A stretch of DNA of 24,000 bases from Tepidibacter thalassicus DSM 15285 (GTDB taxonomy: Bacteria > Bacillota > Clostridia > Peptostreptococcales > Peptostreptococcaceae), in NCBI RefSeq assembly GCF_900129915.1, contig NZ_FQXH01000022.1:1-24000 (forward strand), written 5' to 3'. A program made the translations under genes and the position numbers. Below the pieces are notes generated by a model. That model had not been told where the DNA came from. It saw only the letters and a program-made list of their open reading frames with translations, and made no database searches. The stretch's first letter is position 1. The number at the start of each line of letters is the position of its first letter. Of this stretch, positions 12,125 through 23,557 are shown piece by piece.

Positions 12125-12373
12125 TTAACATGGATTAGAGTGAAAATATTCTATGTGTTTTATATTTTTCTTTTTAACTTCTTTATACTGCCATCTTCTT
12201 TCACAAGGATCCCATCTACATAAATAACAATATTCTCTATCGTATTTTTTTATATATGCTAAATAATTGAAACCATTTTTATGATATACATATGCAAATT
12301 TGTTAATTTTTTTTCTGTAAGTATAGTCTTCAGCTTCTATTGTATTTGAAAAATAATCATACATATAATTCAC
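12125..12373 (-). CDS. Hypothetical Tyr/Cys-rich small protein (82 aa)
   Basis: AAGGAG just upstream of the ATG, and terminators on both sides. 14 Tyr and 4 Cys (CYLC...C...C-terminal C). I recognise no family. Confidence 0.55.
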   Translation of the reverse strand: MNYMYDYFSNTIEAEDYTYRKKINKFAYVYHKNGFNYLAYIKKYDREYCYLCRWDPCERRWQYKEVKKKNIKHIEYFHSNPC

Positions 12374-12452: not shown

Positions 12453-12492
12453 AAAATAAAAAAAAGACTTCCAGGGTGATGGATGGAAGTCT
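12453..12492 (-). terminator. Intrinsic terminator of the activase operon
   Basis: AGACTTCCA (12466-12474) pairs with TGGAAGTCT (12484-12492). Read on the minus strand, T8 then aTTTT follows. Confidence 0.8.
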
Positions 12493-12573
12493 TTGAAATG
12501 AGGTGTTGCGTAATTGTCTGTTCATTAATATTATCGGATATTTATATAGGATATTTAATGTAATTTTTAGAAT

Positions 12574-13557
12574 TTATTCAAATGAGCAAGCTACATTTAG
12601 ATTACTCCATTTACCACATTTATCTCCCCATCTAGCAACTAATTCATCATCTCTATAAATTCCAATAATTTCGCATACATTTGGGCAGTTATCACATTCA
12701 AACCCTTTTACTTTAAAGTTTTTGTCTGTTATATTAAATCCTAAAAAATTACTTTTTTCTTTGTTTTTTACTTTTTCTTTGGCAAGTAGAGCTGCTCCAA
12801 TGGCGCCCATGACATTATGATATTTAGGAACGTGTATTTCATATCCAAGAGCTTTTTCAAAAGCTTTTTTTATTCCGATATTAGCTGCAACTCCTCCTTG
12901 AAATACTATAGGAGGTTGTATATCTTTTCCTTTTGCTAAATTGTTCAAATAATTTCTAACTAATGCTTCGCATAATCCATTTATTATATCCTCTTGACTA
13001 TATCCGAGTTGTTGTTTATGGATCATATCGGATTCTGCAAATACAGCACATCTTCCTGCTATTCTAACTTGAGTAGTAGAATTAAGTGCTAATTTACCAA
13101 ATTCTTCTATAGGGATTCCAAGTCTTGATGCTTGTCGATCTAAAAAAGAACCTGTTCCAGCGGCACATACTGTATTCATTGCAAAATCACTTATAACGTT
13201 ATTTCTTAATAGTATAATTTTTGAATCTTGTCCACCTATTTCTAAAATGGTTTTAACACCTGGAACGAAGTTTAATGCAGCAATTGCATGAGCGGTAATT
13301 TCATTTTTTACAATATCTGCTCCTACCATAACACTAGCGAGTTCTCTTCCACTTCCAGTTGTTCCAACTCCAGAGATTTGTATATTATCTAGATTTTTTA
13401 GAGATTTTTTTATTTTTCCTAAACCTTCTTTTAATACGTTAATCGGGTTTCCCATAGTTCTTATATATAGTTTTTCTAATAAATTATTATTTTCATCTAT
13501 AATTACTATATTGGTACTTACTGAGCCTACATCAATTCCAAGATAAACATTTTTCAT
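12574..13557 (-). CDS. BcrAD/BadFG/HgdC-family ATPase (acyl-CoA dehydratase-type activase) with a Cys-rich C-terminal extension
   Basis: GIDVGSVSTN phosphate-binding start. NTVCAAGTGSFLD and AGRCAVFAESD match the cluster-ligand segments of HgdC-type activators. Extra tail FECDNCPNVCE...KCGKW...C. SD AAAGGAG. Overlaps the upstream gene by 26 nt. Confidence 0.85.
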   Translation of the reverse strand: MKNVYLGIDVGSVSTNIVIIDENNNLLEKLYIRTMGNPINVLKEGLGKIKKSLKNLDNIQISGVGTTGSGRELASVMVGADIVKNEITAHAIAALNFVPGVKTILEIGGQDSKIILLRNNVISDFAMNTVCAAGTGSFLDRQASRLGIPIEEFGKLALNSTTQVRIAGRCAVFAESDMIHKQQLGYSQEDIINGLCEALVRNYLNNLAKGKDIQPPIVFQGGVAANIGIKKAFEKALGYEIHVPKYHNVMGAIGAALLAKEKVKNKEKSNFLGFNITDKNFKVKGFECDNCPNVCEIIGIYRDDELVARWGDKCGKWSNLNVACSFE

Positions 13558-14647
13558 TGTTAATAAACTCCTTTCTTCTTGAAAGTAAATCTATAAAAGC
13601 CTCTATTCGAGTTAAATATCCAGCTTCACCTGTCATTTCATCTAATATTAGAGATAGAATAGGAATACTTTTTTCGTTTTCTATAGTTGGAAGAATGCTT
13701 TGTGCTACAATTTCGGGCATACATGTAAATGGCAGTAGGTGAATGACGCCATCATAGTTTTTTTGACTATATCTAACTGTATTTCCTATAGTTTGTTTAG
13801 CGTGGCCTCCTATTTGTTTACTTAAATATGGTTTTGCAGCTTTGTGAATGTCTTTTTTTTCAGAATGTATAAATGGAAGAAAGTCCATTTGCTCTTTTAA
13901 AAATTCACTGGAGTTTATAGATTTGTGTACTTCAATTCCCATATTACCTAATTTTTTTTCAATATTGAAATTTACGAAAGGTTCTACAATTGTGTATATT
14001 TCTCCTACAATTCCTATTTTTAGGACATTTTTGTTTTTGTCAATTTTTATTTTTTTTAGTTTTTCTTTATTTTTTTCTATAATTTTGATAGTTTCTTTAA
14101 ATCCTTTTGAGTTATTTATATCTCTTTCGAATTGAGAGTATATTTTATCTACTTCTCCTTTGATTATTTCTCTTGGTCTTATTGTATTTACAATATTGTC
14201 AAATTCATCAACTTCAAATAGTATTTTTATGCCTTTTTTAAAAGCAGATAAAATTTTAAAGTAATTATTCGTGTTGGATACTTTTTTTAGTTTTTGAAGA
14301 AAATCTTTTATTTCTTCTAGTGTTCTAAAAGGTTCTACGGAAATCATTTCAACATTGTAACCTAAATCGTTTAATATTTCTCTTTGAAGTGTACTGTATA
14401 GTCCTAATCTGCAAGGTCCACATCCGCTTATCATAAAAATAGTGTCTGCTCCTTTTTTAATTCCTTCTATATAATTTCCCATATTAATTTTAAAAGGCAT
14501 ACAAATAAGTTCTGGTGAATATTTTGTACCAATCTCGAGAGTATTTTTACTGCATTTTGGAGGAGTTATTACCTCGACATTTAATTCTTCAAACATAACT
14601 TTGATAGCTATGTATGTATTACCCATGTGTGGGAACGTTACTTTCAT
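13532..14647 (-). CDS. Activase-associated Cys-rich protein (DUF2229 / HGD-D-like), subunit 2
   Basis: 371 aa, paralogous to the upstream 313-aa product. Motifs ELICMPFK, SGCGPCRLG, LPFTCMPE, and tail LDEMTGEAGYLTRIEAFIDLL. GGAGGG SD. 29-nt overlap with the upstream gene. Confidence 0.75.
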   Translation of the reverse strand: MKVTFPHMGNTYIAIKVMFEELNVEVITPPKCSKNTLEIGTKYSPELICMPFKINMGNYIEGIKKGADTIFMISGCGPCRLGLYSTLQREILNDLGYNVEMISVEPFRTLEEIKDFLQKLKKVSNTNNYFKILSAFKKGIKILFEVDEFDNIVNTIRPREIIKGEVDKIYSQFERDINNSKGFKETIKIIEKNKEKLKKIKIDKNKNVLKIGIVGEIYTIVEPFVNFNIEKKLGNMGIEVHKSINSSEFLKEQMDFLPFIHSEKKDIHKAAKPYLSKQIGGHAKQTIGNTVRYSQKNYDGVIHLLPFTCMPEIVAQSILPTIENEKSIPILSLILDEMTGEAGYLTRIEAFIDLLSRRKEFINNEKCLSWN

Positions 14648-15560
14648 TTTTATCCCTCCATTTAATCATATCTATAAAAGCTTCAATTCTTGTATTTAAA
14701 CCTCCTTCTCCTGTGTGTTCATCTAAAGTTAGAAGCATAAAAGGAATATCACTTTCTCTTTTTATATATCTTTCTATTGTGTCTGCTACAACAGAATCAA
14801 TTCCACATCCAAAAGATGATACATAGATAATTCCATTGACAATTTTATTCTCGATTAAATAAAGTGTAGTTCCGATGAGTTTTCTAGCAAATGTCCAAAA
14901 TATTTTTCCTTTATATTTTTTGGCATATTCATTGATATAAATATCGTCTATCATTTGAGGAGTTAATACATCAATTTCATTTAAATTTATTTTGTTTATT
15001 GTATTCATATTTACGTAAGTATCGTATAAGTTATATGTATGTCCCATAAGCATAATTTTTTTATTATTTTTATTGGGGATATTATTTAACATATTTTTTT
15101 TATATTCTTCAAATTTTAAATATGCTATATCGTAGGCACGTGATATAGTATTAAAATCAGTTGAGAAATATTTTCCTATTTCATAAATAGTTTCATTTAA
15201 ATTGTCTTTTGATTTTATAAAATTAATTTCAGTATTAATGATTTCTGGTAAATCTTTTATTGAATTTTTAATCATTTCTGGTAGACCGCAAAATTTTGGA
15301 CAAATATGTTCACCTTTAAATAAACTCATTATTCTAGGTATAAAAATATAATCAACTTTATCTTTTAAATTTAATACATGTCCGTGAAATAATTTAACGG
15401 GTAAACATGCATCATCTACTGTATTTTGTACTCCTTCGTTGAGAATTTTTTTATTTGTATTTTCAGATATTATAACTTGAGCACCTAATTCCTCGAAGAA
15501 AGTTGTCCATAAAGGAGCGTATTCATGAAAAAGAAGTGCTCTAGGTATTCCTATTTTCAT
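14619..15560 (-). CDS. Activase-related protein (DUF2229-like), subunit 1
   Basis: 313 aa. Motifs DDACLPVK, HICPKFCGLPE, SSFGCGIDS, and tail LDEHTGEGGLNTRIEAFIDMI. AGGAGG SD 8 nt upstream of the ATG. Confidence 0.75.
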   Translation of the reverse strand: MKIGIPRALLFHEYAPLWTTFFEELGAQVIISENTNKKILNEGVQNTVDDACLPVKLFHGHVLNLKDKVDYIFIPRIMSLFKGEHICPKFCGLPEMIKNSIKDLPEIINTEINFIKSKDNLNETIYEIGKYFSTDFNTISRAYDIAYLKFEEYKKNMLNNIPNKNNKKIMLMGHTYNLYDTYVNMNTINKINLNEIDVLTPQMIDDIYINEYAKKYKGKIFWTFARKLIGTTLYLIENKIVNGIIYVSSFGCGIDSVVADTIERYIKRESDIPFMLLTLDEHTGEGGLNTRIEAFIDMIKWRDKNESNVPTHG

Positions 15561-15695
15561 AAATTCATCCTCCTAATCTATTATCAGTTTGATATTATTG
15601 ACAAATATTATAAATTTATTCATTTTAAAATATTAGATTAAATCTTTTTTTCTGTGGTATTATTAGATAAGTAACTAAAATTAAGGAGTGAAAAA

Positions 15696-16892
15696 ATGAT
15701 TGATTTAACTAAGCTTTTAAGTAAAACTGATATAGAAAAGGATTGTATAAGATATTCAAAGGATTGTAGTAAAGCTAAAAGTGGAGTACGAAAAGGCATG
15801 GGTCCTGTTGTGGTATGGAATATAACTAATATATGTAATTTTAAATGCAAGCACTGCTACTCAAATGCAGTTTCGTATAAAAGTGAAGAAGAGTTAAGCA
15901 CTAAAGAAGTAAAAAAGGTTATAGATGATTTAGCTAGTATAAATGTGCCAGTAATATTATTATCTGGAGGAGAGCCTCTTATGAGGAATGATATATTTGA
16001 GATTATAAAATACATAAAATATAAAGGTATTAGAGTGAGTCTTTCAACTAATGGAAGTCTTATAACACAGGATACTGCTAGAATATTAAAAGATTTAGGT
16101 ATTGGTTATGTGGGCATTAGTTTGGATGGGACTTCTAAAACTAATGATTATTTTAGAGGAGTTAATGGAGCATATGATAGGGTTGTGAATGCCATAAAAA
16201 ATTGTAAAGAAGTAGACCAAAAGGTGGGTCTTAGATTTACTATTCAAAAGAAAAACTATAAAGAGGTAAAAGATATTTTAAAATTAGTAGATGAAATGGA
16301 TATTCCAAGAATTTGCTTTTATCATTTAGTTCCTAGTGGAAGAGGTCAAAGTATAATTGATGATATGTTATCTCATGATGAAATTAAATATGTTATAGAT
16401 GTTTTATATTATTATGTAAAAAATATGGTGAATGAAAATAAAAATATTAAAGAGATATTAACAGTTGCAAATTTTACAGATGGTGTATATGTGTATCTAA
16501 AGGAAAAAGATGCTAATCAAAAAGAAAGGATATTAGAGCTTTTAAAAAGAAATGGTGGAAATAGATCAGGAAGTGCAATTGCAAATATTGACTATAGGGG
16601 AAATGTATATCCAGATCAATTTTTTAAAAGCCATATATTAGGAAATGTAAAAGAGAACTCTTTTTCTGAAATATGGAATGGAGAAAATATATTTTTAAGT
16701 GAACTGAGGAATAAAAAAGAAAAAGTAAAGGGAAGATGTAAAAGCTGTAAATATCTTGATATATGTAAAGGGAATTTAAGAGCTAGAGCTTATGGATATT
16801 ACGGTGATATTTGGGCTGAGGATCCTAGCTGCTATCTTACAGATAAAGAAATTGGGGTGAAAAATAATGATTATATCATGGAACATGACTAA
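15696..16892 (+). CDS. ahbC: Radical-SAM enzyme, NirJ1/AhbC-like (Fe-coproporphyrin III synthase candidate)
   Basis: CNFKCKHC CxxxCxxC motif, GGEPL SAM-binding motif, C-terminal CKSCKYLDICKG...C cluster motif. AAGGAG SD. In a cassette with a second radical-SAM gene and two siroheme decarboxylase-type genes. The AhbC versus AhbD assignment is tentative. Confidence 0.65.
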   Translation: MIDLTKLLSKTDIEKDCIRYSKDCSKAKSGVRKGMGPVVVWNITNICNFKCKHCYSNAVSYKSEEELSTKEVKKVIDDLASINVPVILLSGGEPLMRNDIFEIIKYIKYKGIRVSLSTNGSLITQDTARILKDLGIGYVGISLDGTSKTNDYFRGVNGAYDRVVNAIKNCKEVDQKVGLRFTIQKKNYKEVKDILKLVDEMDIPRICFYHLVPSGRGQSIIDDMLSHDEIKYVIDVLYYYVKNMVNENKNIKEILTVANFTDGVYVYLKEKDANQKERILELLKRNGGNRSGSAIANIDYRGNVYPDQFFKSHILGNVKENSFSEIWNGENIFLSELRNKKEKVKGRCKSCKYLDICKGNLRARAYGYYGDIWAEDPSCYLTDKEIGVKNNDYIMEHD

Positions 16893-17859
16893 AAACTGTA
16901 ATTTATATTGCAAGCATTGCTATAGAGATGCAGGTCCTAATGAAAAGCAAAAGGATGAATTAGATACTAAGGAAAGTAAGGAATTGATTAAAGGAATAGC
17001 TAAAGCAGGATTTAAAATATTAATTTTTAGTGGAGGAGAGCCACTTCTTAGAGAAGATTTGTTTGAGTTGACAGAATACGCTCACTCATTAGGTCTTATA
17101 GTTGGACTTGGAACTAATGGAACTTTGATTACAAAAGAAATTGCGAAAAAATTAAAGGAAAGTAAAGTTCGTGCAGTAGCAATAAGCTTAGATAGTTTAG
17201 ATGAAAATAAACATGATGAATTTAGACAAGTTAAAGGTAGCTTTAAGGATTGTATAAGAGGAATTAAAGAAAGTATAAATGCAGGACTTAAAGTTCAAAT
17301 AAATACTACTGTAACTAAATCTAATTATGAAGAGATAACTAAAATTACTGATTATATTTCATCTCTTGGTGGACATTCTCATCATCCATTTTTTCTTGTA
17401 GAAGTAGGACGCGGGAAAAATATAGGGAAAGAAGGTTTAAATAAAAAAGAATATAAAGAAATTATAAATAGAATACTTGATAAGCAGAAAAATACTCATA
17501 TAGAATTAAAGCCAACTTGTGCTCCACAGTTTATGGTAGAGGCTAAAGAAAAAGGGATGGATATGAGGTTTAGCAGAGGATGTATTGCTGGAATTAAATA
17601 CTGCTGTATACTACCTAATGGAGATGTTCATATTTGTCCATATCTGCCTATAAAGGTTGGAAGTGTTAGAGAAAAGCCTTTTGATGTTATATGGGAACAA
17701 AGTGAAATTTTTAATAAGCTTAGAGATTATAAAAATTATAAAGGTAATTGTGGATCTTGTAAAAATATAAATATTTGTGGAGGGTGTAGAGCTAGAGCTT
17801 TTAGTAAAACTGGAGATTATCTTCAAGAGGATACTTTTTGCTTAAAGGGGGACGATTAA
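16867..17859 (+). CDS. ahbD: Radical-SAM/SPASM-like enzyme, NirJ2/AhbD-like (haem synthase candidate)
   Basis: CNLYCKHC motif and GGEPL. Full auxiliary-cluster region GCIAGIKYCCILPNGDVHICPYL plus CGSCKNINICGGCRARAF...C. GGGGTGA SD. 26-nt overlap with the upstream gene. Confidence 0.65.
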   Translation: MIISWNMTKNCNLYCKHCYRDAGPNEKQKDELDTKESKELIKGIAKAGFKILIFSGGEPLLREDLFELTEYAHSLGLIVGLGTNGTLITKEIAKKLKESKVRAVAISLDSLDENKHDEFRQVKGSFKDCIRGIKESINAGLKVQINTTVTKSNYEEITKITDYISSLGGHSHHPFFLVEVGRGKNIGKEGLNKKEYKEIINRILDKQKNTHIELKPTCAPQFMVEAKEKGMDMRFSRGCIAGIKYCCILPNGDVHICPYLPIKVGSVREKPFDVIWEQSEIFNKLRDYKNYKGNCGSCKNINICGGCRARAFSKTGDYLQEDTFCLKGDD

Positions 17860-17860
17860 A

Positions 17861-18316
17861 ATGGATTGTATAGATTGTAAAATTTTAAATGAAGTTCAAA
17901 ATGGAATATCTATTCAAAAAAGACCTTTTAAAAAAATAGCAGATAATTTAGGTATAAGTGAAGATGAGGTTGTAAATAGAATTAATAACTTAAAGGAAAA
18001 AGGATATATAAGGAGGTTTGGAGGAATATTTGACAGCCAAAATTTAGGAGTTGCAAGTACGCTTGTTGCTATGAAGATTGAAAAAGATATAGATTATGTA
18101 GCAAATATTGTGAGTGAATATAGTGGAGTAACTCATAATTATCAAAGAGAGGATGAGTACAATCTTTGGTTTACATTAATGGCTTCATCTAATGGAGAGC
18201 TTGAGAATATATTGAAAGAAATAAAAGAGAGAACAGGAGTACAGGATATTTTAAATCTTCCTTCAGTTAATAAGCATAAGGTTCATGTACATCTTAATTT
18301 TGACAATAAAGGGTGA
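17861..18316 (+). CDS. ahbA: Siroheme decarboxylase subunit (NirD/L/G/H-AhbA/B family, AsnC fold)
   Basis: N-terminal wHTH (RPFKKIADNLGISEDEVVNRINNLKEKGYIRRFG) followed by VTHNYQREDEYNLWFTL, which matches the NirDL/Ahb signature. The A versus B label follows gene order only. Confidence 0.7.
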   Translation: MDCIDCKILNEVQNGISIQKRPFKKIADNLGISEDEVVNRINNLKEKGYIRRFGGIFDSQNLGVASTLVAMKIEKDIDYVANIVSEYSGVTHNYQREDEYNLWFTLMASSNGELENILKEIKERTGVQDILNLPSVNKHKVHVHLNFDNKG

Positions 18317-18325
18317 TTTTATTTG

Positions 18326-18802
18326 ATGGATAATATAGATAAAGATATTATAGTTTATTTATCTCAAGATATAGAAGTAACTAAGGATATTTATGAGGAT
18401 TTGAGTAAAAAATTTAATATATCTGAAGAAGATCTTATTAAAAGGTTAAAAAGATTAAATGAAAGTGGTTATTTAAAACGTATTGCTCCCGTTATGATTC
18501 ATCAAAAAAGTGGTTATAACAGTAACGCCATGGCAGTTTGGAATATACCAAAAGATAATTTAAAAAAATTTATAGACATAATTAAGGGTATTAATAATAT
18601 AAGTCATATTTATGAAAGAAGAACAGATGAGAAATGGCCTTATAATTTATATACAATGATTCATGGAAGAAATAAAAAAGAAGTAGAGAATATAATAAAT
18701 TATTTATTGCAAAAAATAGAAGTTAAAGATTTTAAGGTGTTATATACAATTAAGGAATGGAAAAAAACGAGTCCGAATTTATCAAAACTAATAAAAAAAT
18801 AG
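18326..18802 (+). CDS. ahbB: Siroheme decarboxylase subunit (second AhbA/B-family paralogue)
   Basis: ISHIYERRTDEKWPYNLYTMIHGRNKKE...FKVLYTIKEWKK matches the second Ahb/NirH-type subunit pattern. ATG at 18326; the TTG at 18323 is an alternative start. Confidence 0.7.
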   Translation: MDNIDKDIIVYLSQDIEVTKDIYEDLSKKFNISEEDLIKRLKRLNESGYLKRIAPVMIHQKSGYNSNAMAVWNIPKDNLKKFIDIIKGINNISHIYERRTDEKWPYNLYTMIHGRNKKEVENIINYLLQKIEVKDFKVLYTIKEWKKTSPNLSKLIKK

Positions 18803-19233: not shown

Positions 19234-20298
19234 ATGGAAAATAGAGTTGACGTAATTAGTAATTTTAACGATAAAAAAAAGAAATTGATTGTAGTGGGTA
19301 GTGTTTTGTTTACATTTATAGTATTTTTGCTTGTATTGTCGGTTAATTTAGGAAGAGCTGATATTAGTATAAGTGAAGTAATAAAAATAATTTATGGAAA
19401 AATTACGTTTGATGAAAAAATTTTAGGTGATATAAGTAAATCGAAAATTGCTATAGTTTGGAATATAAGGCTTCCAAGAATTTTAATAGCGATATTTGTT
19501 GGATGGGGTCTTGCGGTTTCTGGAACTGTTTTTCAATCTTTATTAATGAATCCATTGGCAGATCCTTATACAATAGGGGTTTCAACAGGGGCAGCATTTG
19601 GAGCAGTTATTGCTATATATATAAATATATTTATATTAGAAAACCCTATACCCATAACTCCTTTTGCATTTTTAGGAGCAATATTTACACTTTTTCTTGT
19701 AATAAAAATTGCAAATAAGAATGGATATATGAGTTCATCAAATTTAATAATTTCAGGAATTATTGTAAGCTCTATATTATCTGCTGGTATAAGTTTTTTA
19801 AAAAGTGCATCTGGGGAGCAGGTTTCAGCTATAATATATTGGCTTATGGGAAGTTTAGATTCGAGATCTTGGAATCAGGTGATTTTGAGTTTTCCTGTGA
19901 TTATGATTTTGACATTTGTATGTATATATTTTTCAGAGGATTTAAATATACTTGCTTTAGGAGAATGCCAAGCTAGATCTCTTGGAGTAAATACAAAAAA
20001 AATTAGAAGTATATTTTTGATAAGTGCATCATTGATTACTGCAGTTTGTGTTTCTGTAAGTGGAATAATAGGATTTATAGGTCTTATAGTTCCCCACATG
20101 TTGAGATTTTCTTTAACATCAGATAATAAATCGCTTATTCCATTATCAGCACTTTTGGGTTCACTTTTACTTTTATTTGCTGATAATATATCAAGGGTTT
20201 TGTTTAATGTTGAAATTCCCGTGGGAGTTATAACAACGTTGTTTGGAGGACCTTTTTTTATATATATATTTATTAGCAAGAATAAAAGTATACAATGA
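19234..20298 (+). CDS. FecCD-family ABC permease (BtuC-like corrinoid/iron-chelate importer)
   Basis: ~10 TM segments. FecCD motifs (WNIRLPRIL, DPYTIGVSTGAAFGA, GIIGFIGLIVPHMLR). First gene behind the B12 riboswitch. Confidence 0.88.
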   Translation: MENRVDVISNFNDKKKKLIVVGSVLFTFIVFLLVLSVNLGRADISISEVIKIIYGKITFDEKILGDISKSKIAIVWNIRLPRILIAIFVGWGLAVSGTVFQSLLMNPLADPYTIGVSTGAAFGAVIAIYINIFILENPIPITPFAFLGAIFTLFLVIKIANKNGYMSSSNLIISGIIVSSILSAGISFLKSASGEQVSAIIYWLMGSLDSRSWNQVILSFPVIMILTFVCIYFSEDLNILALGECQARSLGVNTKKIRSIFLISASLITAVCVSVSGIIGFIGLIVPHMLRFSLTSDNKSLIPLSALLGSLLLLFADNISRVLFNVEIPVGVITTLFGGPFFIYIFISKNKSIQ

Positions 20299-20315
20299 TT
20301 TTAGAAGGTGGTTAG

Positions 20316-21071
20316 ATGCTTAAGGTCCAAAATGTTAGTTTTAGTTATAAAGATAAAGTTGTTCTTGATGATATAAGTTTTTCAATGGGGAAGGGAAAAT
20401 TTTTATCTATAATAGGACCAAATGGTTCAGGAAAAACTACTCTTTTGAATTTATTGACTGGATATTTAGAAAAGAAAACTGGAAGTATAAAATTTTTGGG
20501 TAAAGAAATAAAAAATTATTCAGTTGAAGAACTTTCAAGAAATTTTGCAATAATAAATCAAAATACAAATATAAGGTTTCCCTTTACATGTCTTGAAATA
20601 GTGATGATGGGAAGAAATCCATTTAGAGAAAGAATGAAAAAGTTAAGTGAAAATGATATGGAGATAGTTTATAAATCTATGGAAATTACTGATACTTTAA
20701 AATTTTCAGATTCACTTATAACTCAAATAAGTGGAGGAGAATTTCAAAGGGTTATGCTTGCTAGAGCTTTAAGTCAAAAACCAAGTATTTTATTTTTAGA
20801 CGAGGCTTTTTCTGCCATGGATATTTCGCAGAGAATTAAATCTTTAAAGTTAATTAAGGGTTTAGTAATAAAAGAGGGTTTAACTGTTGTATCAATAATA
20901 CATGATTTAAATCTTGCTTATATGTTTAGCGATGAAGTTTGTGTTTTAAAAGAAGGAAAGATGGTAGCGTTTGGAAAGTGCAGTGATATAATGACTGCAG
21001 ATTTTATCAACGAAGTATTTGATATAAATGTAGATAGAATTGATAATAGAGGATTTTTAATAATGCTTTAA
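20316..21071 (+). CDS. ABC ATPase (BtuD/FepC/HmuV-like)
   Basis: Walker A GPNGSGKTT, signature ISGGEFQRV, Walker B ILFLDEAFS, H-loop IIHD. Confidence 0.9.
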   Translation: MLKVQNVSFSYKDKVVLDDISFSMGKGKFLSIIGPNGSGKTTLLNLLTGYLEKKTGSIKFLGKEIKNYSVEELSRNFAIINQNTNIRFPFTCLEIVMMGRNPFRERMKKLSENDMEIVYKSMEITDTLKFSDSLITQISGGEFQRVMLARALSQKPSILFLDEAFSAMDISQRIKSLKLIKGLVIKEGLTVVSIIHDLNLAYMFSDEVCVLKEGKMVAFGKCSDIMTADFINEVFDINVDRIDNRGFLIML

Positions 21072-21133
21072 AACTCTTTGAAGAGTTTGTTATATAAATT
21101 TTATTAAAATATAAACAAGGGAGGAGATTTACT

Positions 21134-22039
21134 ATGAAAATTAAAAAAAGCTTAACTTTATTGTTGAGTTTGTTGTTGTTAGGGGGGATTTTAGCAGGAT
21201 GTTCTAGTGCTGGAGCTGCTGAAGAAGAGGTTAAAAAGGATCCAAATAAAAAAGCTGTTCTCGTAGTAAGTTTTGGTACGAGCTATGCAGATACTCGTAA
21301 AGTTACAATTGAGGCTTGTGAAAGCAAAATAGACAAAGCTTTTCCTGATTATGAGATGAGAAGAGCTTTTACTTCAGATATTATAATCAAAAAACTTAAA
21401 GAAAGAGATAAAATAAAAGTTGATACTCCAAAAGAAGCTTTAACTAAATTAAAAAAAGAAGGTTTTTCAGAAGTTATAGTTCAACCTCTTCATGTTATTA
21501 ATGGAGCAGAATATGATGATTTAATTGCAGAAGTTAATAATTTTAAAAATGATTTTGATAAATTAGTTGTTGGAAATCCATTGCTTACAAGTATTGAAGA
21601 TTATAAAAATTTAGTTGAGGCTTTAAAAACTCAAATGCCAGAGCTTAAGGATAATGAAGCTGTTGTATTTATGGGTCATGGAACTCATCATTATTCAAAT
21701 TCTGCTTATGCATGTCTTGATTATATGTTTGAAGATATGGGAATAAGAGCTTATGTAGGTACAGTTGAGGGATATCCAACACTTGACAATGTAATTAAAA
21801 AATTAAAGAGAGATAATGTAGAAAAAGTAATATTGATGCCATTAATGCTTGTTGCAGGAGACCATGCTAATAATGATATGGCAGGAGATGAAGAGGATTC
21901 TTGGAAAAGCGTACTTAAAAAAGAAGGATTTGTGGTTGAAGCTTATTTACATGGTTTAGGTGAGAATGAAAAAGTACAAGATATGTATGTTCAGCATGCA
22001 AAAGAAGCAGTAAATTCTCAAGAGAAAACTGAAAAATAA
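21134..22039 (+). CDS. cbiK: CbiK-family class II chelatase homologue carrying a lipoprotein signal peptide (extracytoplasmic)
   Basis: From residue ~40 it looks collinear with Salmonella CbiK as I remember it (VLVVSFGTSYADT, RAFTS, MGHGTHH, LMPLMLVAGDHANNDMAG, DSWK, GLGEN). The N-terminus MKIKKSLTLLLSLLLLGGILAG|CSS is a canonical lipobox signal. Confidence 0.85.
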   Translation: MKIKKSLTLLLSLLLLGGILAGCSSAGAAEEEVKKDPNKKAVLVVSFGTSYADTRKVTIEACESKIDKAFPDYEMRRAFTSDIIIKKLKERDKIKVDTPKEALTKLKKEGFSEVIVQPLHVINGAEYDDLIAEVNNFKNDFDKLVVGNPLLTSIEDYKNLVEALKTQMPELKDNEAVVFMGHGTHHYSNSAYACLDYMFEDMGIRAYVGTVEGYPTLDNVIKKLKRDNVEKVILMPLMLVAGDHANNDMAGDEEDSWKSVLKKEGFVVEAYLHGLGENEKVQDMYVQHAKEAVNSQEKTEK

Positions 22040-22050
22040 TAAATATTAAT

Positions 22051-22088
22051 ACAAATAATCATCAGTTATTTCGCTGATGATTATTTGT
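22051..22088 (+). other. Perfect 15-bp stem / 8-nt loop hairpin between the cbiK-like and btuF-like genes
   Basis: ACAAATAATCATCAG (22051-22065) pairs with CTGATGATTATTTGT (22074-22088). No T-run follows, and the SD GGAGG lies 6 nt downstream. Confidence 0.7.
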
Positions 22089-22105
22089 ATGTTGGAGGAA
22101 TGAAT

Positions 22106-23557
22106 ATGAAAAAAATGGAAAATAAATTAGTTCTATTGTTTACTATATTAATTTCCTTAGTAGTATTTACAGGATGTAGTAGTGTATCTGATAGTGAGAA
22201 AGCTGGTAATAAAGAGTATTCTATAAATTTTGTAGATGATTCAGGAAATGAAATAAATATGAACGAGCCTGCAAAAAAGATAATATCTCTTTATTCTGCT
22301 CATACAGAAAATTTATTTGCACTTGGGCTTGATGATGAAATAATAGGTGTTGGAACCAGTGATATATATCCAGCTAAAGCACTAGAAAAAGAAAAGTATG
22401 ATTATAGATCAGATCCTGAAAAAGTTATAGCAGCAGAACCTGATTTAGTTTTAATTAGACCTTTTATAAAAAGGTCAAAACCAGAGTTTGTAGATGCTCT
22501 TGAAAAGGCTGGTTTAAATGTAGTTTCACTATATCCTGAAAGCTTTGATAAATTTGATGATTACATAAAAAAATTAGGTATGCTTACTGGGAAAACAGAT
22601 AGAGCTGAGCAATTGCTAGAGGATTTTTATAAACAAATTGAAGAAATAAAAAGTATAACAAAAGATATAAGTCCAAAAGTTAATGTTTATTTTGAATCAT
22701 CTGAAAATGGATATAAGACTGTAACAGTTGATTCTATGCCTGCTAAAGCAATAGAAATAGCAGGAGGATTAAATATAGCAACAGATGCAAAACCTAAAAA
22801 AGAAGGAAGTTCAATAGCTGTTTATGGAGCAGAAAGAATACTTGAAAAAGCTGATAAAATTGATGTGTTTGTTTCTCAAAATGGAGTTATGAATGCAGGA
22901 GGTAATAAGCATTCAATAGTTATAAGACCGGGATTTGATTCTATTAAAGCAATTAAGAATAATAGAGTTTATATTATAAATCAAAAAATCATATCAAGTC
23001 CTACATTTAGATACTTAGAGGGGGTAAAAGAGCTTTGTAGAATGTTTTATCCTGAGGTGTTTGATGATATATCAAAATTTAGTTTGGATGAAGAAATTAC
23101 AAGAGATAAGATGGCAGAGATTATAGTTAGATTTAAAAACAAGGGTATATTTGTTCCTACTTCAAAATACTATAGAAAAGAGCATAAGGGACATACTTAT
23201 GGATTGTTTAAAGATGTAGATATAGACAATGAATATTTTAATTTTATAGAAACAGCAGTGACTTCTGGTTATATGAAAGGATTTAAGGAAAATGATGAAG
23301 AATATTTTTATCCTAAAAATAAAATTTCACGAGAAGAGTTTGCGAGTATATTATTTATGATAGGAGATTTAGAAAAGAAAGAGAATAACAATGTGCATAT
23401 TAAAGATTTAGATAAAGTAAAAAATGCAAAAATAGTTCAAATTGTTGTAGACAATAAATTGATGGAACTTGAGAATGGGAATTTTAATCCAGAGAGAAAT
23501 GTTACAGGGAAAGAAGTAGTTAAATCTCTCGAAAAATTGAGAGAAAAAACAAAATAA
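22106..23557 (+). CDS. BtuF-like (class III / PF01497-type) substrate-binding lipoprotein with SLH-like C-terminal repeats
   Basis: ATG at 22106, 7 nt after GGAGG. Lipobox FTG|CSS. N-terminal ~300 aa are periplasmic-binding-protein-like (KKIISLYSAHTENLFALGLDDEIIGV, AAEPDLVLI). The C-terminal ~160 aa contain FKDVDIDNEYFNFIETAVTSGYMKGF...FYPKNKISREEFASILF (SLH-like) flanked by two degenerate copies. The ORF-track TTG start at 22085 lies inside the hairpin. Confidence 0.8.
   Translation: MKKMENKLVLLFTILISLVVFTGCSSVSDSEKAGNKEYSINFVDDSGNEINMNEPAKKIISLYSAHTENLFALGLDDEIIGVGTSDIYPAKALEKEKYDYRSDPEKVIAAEPDLVLIRPFIKRSKPEFVDALEKAGLNVVSLYPESFDKFDDYIKKLGMLTGKTDRAEQLLEDFYKQIEEIKSITKDISPKVNVYFESSENGYKTVTVDSMPAKAIEIAGGLNIATDAKPKKEGSSIAVYGAERILEKADKIDVFVSQNGVMNAGGNKHSIVIRPGFDSIKAIKNNRVYIINQKIISSPTFRYLEGVKELCRMFYPEVFDDISKFSLDEEITRDKMAEIIVRFKNKGIFVPTSKYYRKEHKGHTYGLFKDVDIDNEYFNFIETAVTSGYMKGFKENDEEYFYPKNKISREEFASILFMIGDLEKKENNNVHIKDLDKVKNAKIVQIVVDNKLMELENGNFNPERNVTGKEVVKSLEKLREKTK

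Follow-up and report, generated by a model that had tools for sequence, protein, structure and literature searches.

A split, single-activase relative of anaerobic plasmalogen synthase in Tepidibacter thalassicus, possibly a sporulation-linked lipid ester reductase

[quoted passage not shown] PlsA/PlsR is CPE1194/1195 in C. perfringens, with single-gene forms in Enterococcus, Listeria and Bifidobacterium; examples of Ger are Tmari_0479 of T. maritima and SHJ90043 of D. alkenivorans. Heterologous expression of PlsA/PlsR yields plasmalogens and that of Ger yields sn-1 alkyl ethers (PMC13159169, PMC12838417, PMC8788747), the latter by anaerobic, ATP-dependent reduction of the ester (PMC13159169), and the two are so far indistinguishable from sequence (PMC13274423). 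All validated enzymes and alkyl-ether producers surveyed have the feature 'BBD', two tandem activase domains fused to the Red1 module (PMC13159169), and validated PlsA orthologues share 41-55% identity (PMC12838417).

The window examined here, a stretch of 24,000 nucleotides of the T. thalassicus genome, contains a trio of minus-strand genes for proteins of this kind: gene A (14619..15560; 313 amino acids), a predicted Red1-type Fe-S subunit consisting of DUF2229 and an HGD-D C-terminus; gene B (13532..14647; 371 amino acids), a predicted Red2 (PlsR-like) Fe-S subunit; and gene C (12574..13557; 327 amino acids), a predicted stand-alone HgdC-type activase (ASKHA ATPase) with a PlsA-type linker. 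The overlaps of 29 nucleotides between A and B (14619-14647) and 26 nucleotides between B and C (13532-13557) are as the initial annotation gave them, and all the peptide motifs that it quoted are found in the translations. A strong Shine-Dalgarno sequence stands 8-11 nucleotides ahead of every ATG: AGGAGG for gene A (15569..15574, minus strand, 8 nucleotides upstream of the ATG as read from the sequence), GGAGG for gene B (8 nucleotides from the ATG, within the end of A), and AAGGAG for gene C (within the end of B). The operon has its own intrinsic terminator, as had been claimed, at ~12455..12494 on the minus strand, with an 11-bp stem, a 10-nucleotide loop and a U8 run (dG -13.2 kcal/mol, z = -5.3, none of 200 shuffles folding equally well); a simple terminator scan missed this hairpin because its loop exceeds 8 nucleotides. 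The genes are contiguous in the order A-B-C in 65 of 80 species and all three are adjacent in 71 of 80, A-B fusion proteins of 690-765 amino acids are found, and A, B and C probably form one functional unit.

Domain calls, paralogy and cysteines uphold the view that the operon encodes an HgdC-type activase and two paralogous DUF2229/HGD-D-like Fe-S subunits, with Pfam profiles bearing out BcrAD_BadFG in C and DUF2229 with an HGD-D C-terminus in A and B. Gene A matches the full DUF2229 profile (PF09989) at 194.7 bits and only positions 245-342 of HGD-D (PF06050) at 36 bits; gene B matches DUF2229 at 53.6 bits and only positions 281-341 of HGD-D at 24 bits, below the 28.4 cut-off. The two are paralogous, as noted earlier (BLASTP E = 3e-17, 33% identity across the C-terminal 150 amino acids), and both end in a twin C-terminal motif, DExTGExG..TRIEAFxD, of trio-specific invariant residues. 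Three cysteines of A (C52, C87, C252) are invariant in 82 of 82 orthologues and kept in all 4 aligned PlsA-type Red1 segments, and three of B (C49, C79, C309) are invariant in 76 of 76 orthologues and kept in all Red2 references. With C131, C170 and four tail cysteines of gene C, these six are the invariant cysteines of the trio, and two others listed in the initial annotation are not conserved: C91 of A is present in just 21 of 82 orthologues and C76 of B in 51 of 76. The AlphaFold2 model of A alone (pLDDT 90.7), taken with the Cys triad, gives a predicted BCR/HAD-type catalytic fold; its top Foldseek matches in the PDB are all DCCP, HadBC, BzdNO or MbdON (probability 1.00), led by DCCP, which is also the only PDB sequence match of A.

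Gene C matches PF01869 (BcrAD_BadFG) at 170.5 bits and TIGR00241 at 197 bits (cut-off 125), and its PDB sequence matches, which cover only residues 5-269, are MbdQ (the best), HgdC (1HUX, E = 5e-38), HadI and DCCP-R, with 134-144 bits for HgdC and HadI. Alignment identifies it as an HgdC-type ATPase in which C131 and C170, invariant in 71 of 71 trio activases, correspond to the cysteines that bridge a [4Fe-4S] cluster across the dimer in this family. Four cysteines of the tail (C288, C291, C295, C314), also invariant in 71 of 71, form a CxxCxxxC...C module (12616..12696, minus strand) that is found at the same place in the PlsA-type proteins of Listeria, Collinsella and Fusobacterium. No counterpart was found in the solved activators among the PDB sequence matches of gene C, in agreement with the earlier remark that minimal activators lack the tail, and no Pfam model covers the region. 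To judge from the alignments, this "extra tail" is the PlsA-type Cys4 linker, otherwise seen only behind the second activase domain (Act2) of PlsA-type enzymes, and it presumably binds an additional metal centre, either Fe-S or Zn.

Compared module by module, the trio lines up with fused PlsA-type proteins. Gene A matches residues 670-983 (Red1) of Listeria Pls with 28% identity (E = 7e-31), gene B residues 1032-1404 (Red2) with 20% identity (E = 7e-9; 1e-5 to 1e-12 against Red2 of the fused proteins), and gene C residues 317-632 (Act2 and linker, including CxxCxxxC...C) with 32% identity (E = 1e-51). The split (A+Red1)|(B+Red2) was recovered in 200 of 200 neighbour-joining bootstraps. Invariant residues common to the trio and its PlsA-type counterpart number 23 of 40 in A, 15 of 37 in B and 57 of 114 in C, and include every Fe-S cysteine. 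By these comparisons A corresponds to Red1 and B to Red2 (PlsR), each with three invariant cysteines as in HadB and HadC. The description of DUF2229 as a family with no experimentally defined substrate is outdated, since PlsA/PlsR and Ger share the architecture and have defined substrates. "Unknown chemistry" is still formally true of the trio clade; its collinearity with these enzymes allows a substrate class to be proposed.

The PlsA-type references (Listeria, Collinsella, Fusobacterium) have two BcrAD_BadFG domains and DUF2229 (231-286 bits), and their Red modules are 55-58% identical across phyla, whereas group means between the trio and PlsA-type proteins are 24% and 21%; full-length PlsA-type proteins are at least 64% identical among the best 120 matches. 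The trio's identity to Listeria Pls (20-32%) also lies outside the range of validated orthologues. Thus, with 20-32% identity to PlsA-type proteins compared with 55-68% among these, the trio forms a sister clade of its own, with one free-standing activase. The 'BBD' feature is not found: the one activase is unfused and Red1 and Red2 are separate, as in 65 of 80 related loci.

A candidate promoter of the forespore type (sigma F/G-like), GAATA-N17-AATAATA (15593..15621, minus strand), has a -35 element beginning 61 nucleotides upstream of the gene A ATG, and was identified by matching to the consensus GHATR-N17/18-CATxHTA, from which it differs by one mismatch. It is the sole intergenic match to the pattern on either strand of the whole window, in which a sigma-70-like match has its -10 element directly abutting the ribosome-binding site. 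Orthologous loci repeat this arrangement at an equal distance from the start codon. Perfect consensus matches occur in three other loci (L008, L014, L019). An a-priori sigma G regular expression, of low sensitivity in that it recovered 2 of 12 spoVAC promoters, matched 14 of 81 regions upstream of the trio and 9 of 413 controls (p = 9e-7), at a fixed position of -56 to -86, and a widened pattern defined after seeing the data matched 37 of 81 and 10 of 413 (2.4%), respectively. In the Alkaliphilus and Tissierellia groups the pattern is footprint-conserved with variable spacers. Similar-looking promoters (GTATT-N18-AAAAATA) precede SASP genes in the same taxa (L011, L012). Recognition of the trio promoter by a mother-cell sigma factor is a less likely alternative.

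Of 13 loci with spoVA-type genes, 10 have the trio directly 3' of spoVAF, with a same-strand gap from spoVAF to gene A of 26-32 nucleotides in Halothermothrix, Orenia and two metagenome-assembled genomes (L049, L053, L056, L080). In several orders the trio extends a spoVA operon in this way; in the T. thalassicus window it does not. The promoter type and the neighbours in other species suggest that the trio is expressed within the forming spore. No mention of such genes was found in C. difficile sporulation-regulon papers. The trio also occurs in one Asgard metagenome-assembled genome and in Haloplasma, which to our knowledge does not form endospores.

In the window, the trio is divergent from nirJ1-nirJ2-ahbAB and shares a 135-bp intergenic region with nirJ1. 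Only the two Tepidibacter genomes among 81 loci have this neighbourhood, and nirJ/ahb are not conserved neighbours of the trio. This divergence, the sporulation-type promoter, the linkage to spoVA elsewhere and the identity of the tail had gone unmentioned in the initial annotation. In four Alkaliphilus-group genomes the same-strand gene immediately ahead of the trio encodes a PLD-type cardiolipin synthase (cls), a linkage confined to one lineage, and in Monoglobus the trio adjoins dapF and a diaminopimelate (DAP) aminotransferase gene. The window contains no lipid-metabolism genes. No genes for CoA-transferase, 2-hydroxyacid dehydrogenase or ETF/acyl-CoA dehydrogenase were found in the window or among the neighbour clusters recovered as conserved at 80 related loci, in line with the earlier statement that a context of 2-hydroxyacyl-CoA fermentation is absent.

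The best explanation, to which we tentatively assign a probability of about 45%, is that the trio encodes a split, single-activase, sporulation-linked and ATP-driven lipid ester reductase of the PlsA/PlsR-Ger branch of the benzoyl-CoA reductase/2-hydroxyacyl-CoA dehydratase (BCR/HAD) superfamily, its substrate and expression being predicted. If the enzyme works like PlsA/PlsR and Ger, a homodimer of gene C product would be reduced by ferredoxin or flavodoxin, and its hydrolysis of ATP would drive low-potential electrons, probably by way of the Cys4 site, to the A-B heterodimer and its [4Fe-4S] clusters. In the heterodimer, the carbonyl of an acyl ester in a membrane glycerolipid would accept two electrons and undergo protonation and dehydration to give a vinyl ether (plasmalogen) or an alkyl ether. 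Transcription would start at the forespore-type promoter or, in other lineages, read through from spoVA, so the enzyme would act in the developing spore, where it could plausibly remodel the lipids of the inner membrane. Transfer of the substrate from PlsA-type enzymes across 20-32% identity is uncertain, and the absence from the trio of the 'BB' double activase of all validated Ger and PlsA enzymes counts against reading it as an ester reductase.

The same ATP-driven Fe-S reductase/dehydratase machinery might instead act on a different substrate, such as a spore-specific small molecule or an acyl thioester, in which case the homology to PlsA and Ger would reflect shared electron-injection chemistry only. 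The deep split (21-24% identity compared with 55-58% within the PlsA-type clade), the trio-specific invariant residues, especially the twin motif, and the retention of an HGD-D/DCCP-like C-terminus that Listeria Pls no longer matches all fit such a divergence, as do the Monoglobus neighbours and the description of activation-domain-less PlsA homologues as of 'unclear role' in a 2026 paper (PMC13274423). We nevertheless consider it less likely: all modules including the Cys4 linker are common to PlsA/Ger and to no other characterised branch, more than half of the invariant residues of A are identical in Red1, and no conserved neighbour points to an alternative substrate. That the trio is a split housekeeping PlsA/PlsR, a vegetative plasmalogen synthase with coincidental sporulation signals, is distinctly improbable, even though the homology is collinear, Clostridia are classic plasmalogen producers (PMC9702350), and plasmalogens are made by most Bacillota whose PlsA-like homologue has a single activation domain (PMC13274423). 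Clostridia, among them an Alkaliphilus species, very widely have the canonical fused PlsA-type protein in highly conserved form, and extra homologues alongside it have been reported in the 2026 paper (PMC13274423); moreover, control intergenic regions seldom contain the promoter motif, which is positionally fixed upstream of the trio, the sigma-70-like match is crowded against the ribosome-binding site, and fusion to the spoVA operon recurs in several orders.

Two further readings are disfavoured. A classical 2-hydroxyacyl-CoA dehydratase (HgdAB/HadBC/FldBC/LcdAB type) with its activator, serving amino-acid fermentation, is brought to mind by the NCBI name '2-hydroxyacyl-CoA dehydratase' of some homologues, by the similarity of the activase to HgdC and HadI and by the presence of HadBC among the top structural matches of A; it is made very improbable by an HGD-D profile match limited to the last 60-100 residues, identity of 12-14% to HadB/C in structural alignment, the absence of fermentation genes from the window and the conserved neighbour clusters, and the Red1 orthology and Cys4 linker that assign the trio to the PlsA/Ger branch. 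We give equally little credence to the trio being a double-cubane enzyme of the DCCP kind that reduces small molecules, or to its partnering the divergent nirJ1-nirJ2-ahbAB tetrapyrrole genes. Despite the rank of DCCP among the matches of A and the intergenic region common with nirJ1, the double-cubane model NF040772 scores 23 bits (cut-off 350), A and B each have three, not six, invariant cysteines, and the nirJ/ahb neighbourhood is particular to Tepidibacter.

Among known systems, HadBC/HadI and HgdAB/HgdC resemble the trio in having a paralogous heterodimer with a three-cysteine [4Fe-4S] site per subunit and a separate homodimeric ASKHA activator, so that quaternary logic (read here from the genes) and fold (from the model of A) appear to match; they differ in their acyl-CoA substrates, in recycling the injected electron (catalytic activation), in an activator without the Cys4 tail and, for HadBC, in the low structural-alignment identity to A and the fermentation-gene context that the trio lacks. 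DCCP/DCCP-R of C. hydrogenoformans (PDB 6ENO, 7YYL) is the best structural match of A, has a dedicated stand-alone activase and carries out net reductions of very low potential that are coupled to ATP, but it is a homodimer in which six cysteines hold an [8Fe-9S] cluster per subunit, whereas the trio is a predicted heterodimer with three cysteines per subunit. Class I benzoyl-CoA reductases (BzdNOPQ, MbdONPQ, BcrABCD), which include structural matches of A (8s02, 9g87, 9gai), likewise combine two Fe-S catalytic subunits with an ATPase module, and their stoichiometric ATP-driven two-electron reduction would, by analogy, be a further likeness; they differ in having two different ATPase subunits and aromatic thioester substrates, and in lacking DUF2229 and the Cys4 linker. 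Ger, by its published description, shares the vocabulary of BcrAD_BadFG, DUF2229 and HGD-D fragments (BBDHDDH) and differs in having 'BBD', whereas the only B of the trio is unfused. PlsA/PlsR differs in gene and module order (Act1-Act2-Red1(-Red2), compared with three genes Red1-Red2-Act), in possessing Act1 where the trio has one activase only, and in lacking the HGD-D-like twin C-terminal motif, the sporulation-type candidate promoter and the spoVA linkage seen elsewhere. It is like the trio in all of its remaining modules, namely Act2 with the Cys4 linker, Red1 (DUF2229) and Red2 (PlsR), in the same 3 + 3 invariant cysteines of the Red modules and 2 + 4 of the activase and linker, and in the duplication that gave Red1 and Red2.

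The three minus-strand genes A (14619-15560; 313 aa), B (13532-14647; 371 aa) and C (12574-13557; 327 aa) were recovered exactly on re-reading of the window, with overlaps of 29 nt between A and B and of 26 nt between B and C, as in the initial annotation. The Tepidibacter thalassicus origin of the DNA was supported by a 100% protein match on the same contig, and the GC content of the window is approximately 28%. A strong Shine-Dalgarno sequence lies 8 to 11 nt 5' of every ATG of the trio, two of the three being within the preceding gene, and the operon ends at its own intrinsic terminator, as had been claimed (approximately 12455-12494, minus strand; 11-bp stem followed by U8, dG -13.2 kcal/mol, z = -5.3). 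Pfam and NCBIfam agree with the earlier family assignments: A contains DUF2229 and the C-terminal part of HGD-D, the same domains are recognised more weakly in B, and C is an activase of the BcrAD_BadFG/TIGR00241 family; the proposed paralogy of A and B also holds (E = 3e-17). Just past the terminator is an 82-aa Tyr/Cys-rich open reading frame (12125-12373, minus strand), where the source contig annotates a 79-aa gene; its product has no match in Pfam or NCBIfam.

The anatomy was thus described correctly, but the statement that the trio has no assignable substrate is outdated, because the combination of DUF2229 with two fused BcrAD_BadFG domains already has a known function in the literature on PlsA/PlsR and Ger. 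In four papers (PMC13159169, PMC12838417, PMC9702350, PMC8788747), PlsA/PlsR of Clostridium perfringens is characterized by heterologous expression as an anaerobic plasmalogen synthase, and Ger, a "modified PlsA", likewise by heterologous expression, as converting sn-1 esters to alkyl ethers.

PlsA-type references were taken from chromosome-scale PLSDB records mislabelled as plasmids: Listeria monocytogenes (1,475 aa), Collinsella (1,479 aa, adjoining a TetR regulator), Fusobacterium (a two-gene form of 975 and 404 aa) and Acetoanaerobium (1,446 aa). The records NZ_CP030101.1, NZ_CP154629.1 and NZ_CP084075.1 (from Listeria, Acetoanaerobium and Fusobacterium; 2.1-2.9 Mb) are evidently chromosomes, and such entries are a trap for plasmid statistics. 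A Pfam scan of the Listeria, Collinsella and Fusobacterium references found two BcrAD_BadFG domains and DUF2229 in each. At the sequence level the trio and the fused Listeria enzyme are collinear: C aligns with residues 317-632, the second activase module and its linker (Act2; 32% identity, E = 1e-51), A with residues 670-983, the first reductase module (Red1; 28%, E = 7e-31), and B with residues 1032-1404, the second, PlsR-like reductase module (Red2; 20%, E = 7e-9).

In a neighbour-joining tree (64 taxa, 312 columns, Poisson distances, 200 bootstraps), A, B, Red1 and Red2 were monophyletic in 192, 183, 200 and 200 of the 200 replicates, respectively, and the split of A plus Red1 from B plus Red2 was found in all 200, indicating that the duplication that gave rise to Red1 and Red2 had already taken place when the trio and the fused enzymes diverged. 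Identity is 24% between A and Red1 and 21% between B and Red2, compared with 55-58% among PlsA-type proteins of three phyla; invariant residues common to the trio and its PlsA-type counterpart number 23 of 40 for A, 15 of 37 for B and 57 of 114 for C. The 120 best hits of the Acetoanaerobium fused protein are all at least 64% identical to it, with no Tepidibacter protein among them, a result that is uninformative on canonical PlsA in T. thalassicus. The trio forms an old clade of its own, in which the activase is single and unfused.

Several cysteines are invariant in orthologues: C52, C87 and C252 of A (82/82), as are C49, C79 and C309 of B (76/76) and C131, C170 and the tail residues C288, C291, C295 and C314 of C (71/71), but two of the cysteines listed previously, C91 of A and C76 of B, are not conserved. 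The Cys-rich tail of C, rightly said to be absent from minimal activators (it has no counterpart in HgdC, HadI, DCCP-R or MbdQ/P), is included in the alignment with the Listeria enzyme (CDNCPNVCE...GDKCGK versus CNLCSNTCQ...GNRCER), and therefore corresponds to the linker between Act2 and Red1 of PlsA. A 109-kb plasmid of Paraclostridium bifermentans, pHD0315_2-2, encodes a 1,282-aa fused protein (L083, 4189-8037) with two BcrAD_BadFG domains and DUF2229, in which only approximately 44 aa separate Act2 from Red1, without the Cys4 module in the aligned slice; the gene is flanked by a Crp/Fnr regulator and an ABC transporter, with hcp nearby, and its short product may be a third subtype.

An AlphaFold2 model of A (pLDDT 90.7, pTM 0.88) has significant structural relatives only in DCCP, HadBC, BzdNO and MbdON (TM-score approximately 0.5, identity 11-14%); we know of no solved structure of a PlsA- or Ger-type enzyme. 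The parts list of the trio and its homology are established, and its family and class of mechanism can be assigned with high confidence; the predictions for the trio are sharp and inexpensive to test, but all functional claims on it are computational. By family resemblance, C would dimerise around a [4Fe-4S] cluster and be reduced by ferredoxin or flavodoxin, and ATP hydrolysis by C would then drive electrons, probably by way of the Cys4 site, to an A-B heterodimer that would receive them at two [4Fe-4S] clusters, each with three Cys ligands. By analogy with PlsA/PlsR and Ger, the mechanism of which is summarised in PMC8788747, the ester carbonyl of a membrane glycerolipid would undergo two-electron reduction, protonation and dehydration to a vinyl or alkyl ether, a reaction that the genomic context would place in the forespore. 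The chances that a lipid ester is the substrate appear evenly balanced.

The A family is large (4,685 matches among 90% clusters; 2,901 representatives at 50% identity), and almost every member is an unfused protein of 300-370 aa, alongside a few candidate A-B fusions of 690-765 aa. Seven A-matching proteins in that size range (P0151, P0159, P0173, P0179, P0195, P0237 and P0254) align with the whole of A and are of a length that could include B; as candidate natural fusions they would be Rosetta-stone evidence that A and B form a complex. In the regions retrieved around A homologues from 80 genomes, A, B and the activase gene are contiguous in that order at 65 loci and adjacent in other orders at 6, while A and B are without an adjacent activase at 8 and A stands alone at a contig end at 1. 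These loci belong to Clostridia, Tissierellia, Halanaerobiales, Peptococcales, Syntrophomonas, Haloplasmataceae and one Promethearchaeota MAG. In the last (JAFGBS010000027.1; L081, 10001-13085), a 143-kb contig attributed to an Asgard archaeon bears a complete trio, with identities of 38%, 36% and 60% to A, B and C, respectively; either the genes were transferred from bacteria to archaea or the contig was misbinned, and the case recalls the Ger homologues published for Lokiarchaeota. The Wukongibacter baidiensis chromosome (L012, 8185-13271) has a tandem duplication, A-B-activase-A-B, with a YetF pair and spoVAD/spoVAC upstream, Candidatus Frackibacter (L065, 10001-14156) has an additional copy of B after the activase, and several genomes have two unlinked trios (e.g. 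L021 and L022 on one chromosome).

In the window the trio is divergent from a pair of radical SAM/SPASM genes, one nirJ1-like and one nirJ2-like, and from ahbA and ahbB after them, which encode siroheme decarboxylase subunits (15696-18802, plus strand for all four). A link to this Ahb-type tetrapyrrole-modification cluster, or to the cbiK and btu genes beyond it, was discarded because the neighbourhood is found only in the two Tepidibacter genomes among 81 loci. The radical SAM proteins score below every equivalog cut-off (NirJ1 509 versus 650, AhbC 449 versus 650, NirJ2 454 versus 500, AhbD 355 versus 500), and so no product, whether heme b, a heme d1-like compound or another, can be assigned to the cluster. 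Adjoining it, a cobalamin riboswitch (RF00174; 18955-19131, plus strand; 122.6 bits) precedes genes for a BtuC-like permease, an ABC ATPase, the sirohydrochlorin cobaltochelatase CbiK and a BtuF-like binding protein (19234-23557), forming a B12-regulated uptake and chelatase operon. Paired Gate-domain genes downstream of the trio in Tissierellia gave just weak YjiG-like and YlbJ matches, which do not support their identification as spmA/spmB. Three clusters of conserved neighbours (c8, c3 and c4) have no Pfam or NCBIfam assignment and were set aside; they are syntenic with the trio only within Tissierellia, and a terminator stands between c8 and the trio.

Two other contexts are conserved elsewhere. 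At 10 loci (in Halanaerobiales, Peptococcales and several Clostridia) the trio directly follows spoVAF on the same strand, with the full spoVAC-AD-AE-AE1-AF block upstream in 9 of them and only 26-32 nt between spoVAF and A in four; spoVA genes are near the trio at three further loci. In four genomes of the Alkaliphilus group (L008, L009, L014 and L019), A is directly preceded on the same strand, at a distance of approximately 66-300 nt, by a gene for a PLD-type cardiolipin synthase, and the gap contains a candidate sigma G-type promoter (perfect in L008, L014 and L019, with one mismatch in L009).

An a priori sigma G consensus (GHATR-N17/18-CATxHTA, with A also accepted at the first -10 position) was found upstream of A at 14 of 81 loci, compared with 9 of 413 control intergenic regions (p = 9e-7), by a strict pattern that under-detects, having recovered just 2 of the 12 spoVAC promoters and neither SASP promoter; its -35 element always starts at -56 to -86 from the ATG of A. 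Upstream alignments in Tissierellia contain a terminator after the preceding gene and a footprint-conserved [G/A]TTATA-N17/18-[A/C]ATAATA with variable spacers. A pattern widened post hoc by one letter matches 37 of 81 trio loci and 10 of 413 controls. The candidate in the window, GAATA-N17-AATAATA (15621-15593, minus strand), is the sole intergenic match in 48 kb of sequence, and two genes for SASP, which are classic sigma G targets, have GTATT-N18-AAAAATA in the fetched loci. A sigma-70-like match upstream of A (TTGTCA-N18-TAGATT) was dismissed as implausible, since its -10 element directly adjoins the ribosome-binding site. The sigma-factor assignment is a consensus match, not proof. No mention of activase or dehydratase genes was found in papers on the C. 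difficile sigma F/G regulons, nothing relevant in literature on COG3580/3581/1924, and no paper linking the trio genes, or plasmalogens, to clostridial spores. On balance, sporulation control is somewhat favoured, and the joint reading, in which an ATP-driven Fe-S reductase acts on lipid esters under sporulation control, is given a probability of roughly 0.45.

More speculatively, and with the odds against it, many anaerobic endospore-formers may possess a dedicated forespore-expressed paralogue of plasmalogen/ether-lipid synthase, a three-protein, ATP-driven Fe-S enzyme that would convert ester lipids of the spore inner membrane to vinyl or alkyl ethers during maturation. The basis of the low permeability of this membrane is a long-standing question, and ethers in it would add to its unusual impermeability and stability; a precedent is known from Myxococcus, in which ether lipids mark sporulation. 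The literature searched gave no spore-specific enzyme that modifies lipids in this way. If true, the proposal would connect endospore development with ether-lipid chemistry, account for the "extra PlsA homologues of unclear role" in Bacillota genomes, and give a concrete, testable substrate class to approximately 2,900 clusters at 50% identity, for which the labels "acyl-CoA dehydratase activase-related" and "2-hydroxyacyl-CoA dehydratase" are probably misleading.

Homologues of PlsA that lack an activation domain, the role of which is raised as a question in a 2026 paper on ether lipids (PMC13274423), are most likely A and B proteins, and the proposal would address that question. The conserved A-B-activase operon indicates that these homologues do have an activase, which accompanies them as a separate conserved protein. 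According to the Ger authors, all validated Ger/PlsA enzymes have the arrangement "BBD", which the trio lacks. Compared with PlsA and Ger, the trio is a split and deeply divergent system with a single activase and a probable link to sporulation; as three small proteins versus one polypeptide of 1,450 aa, it would be a convenient minimal model for PlsA/Ger biochemistry.
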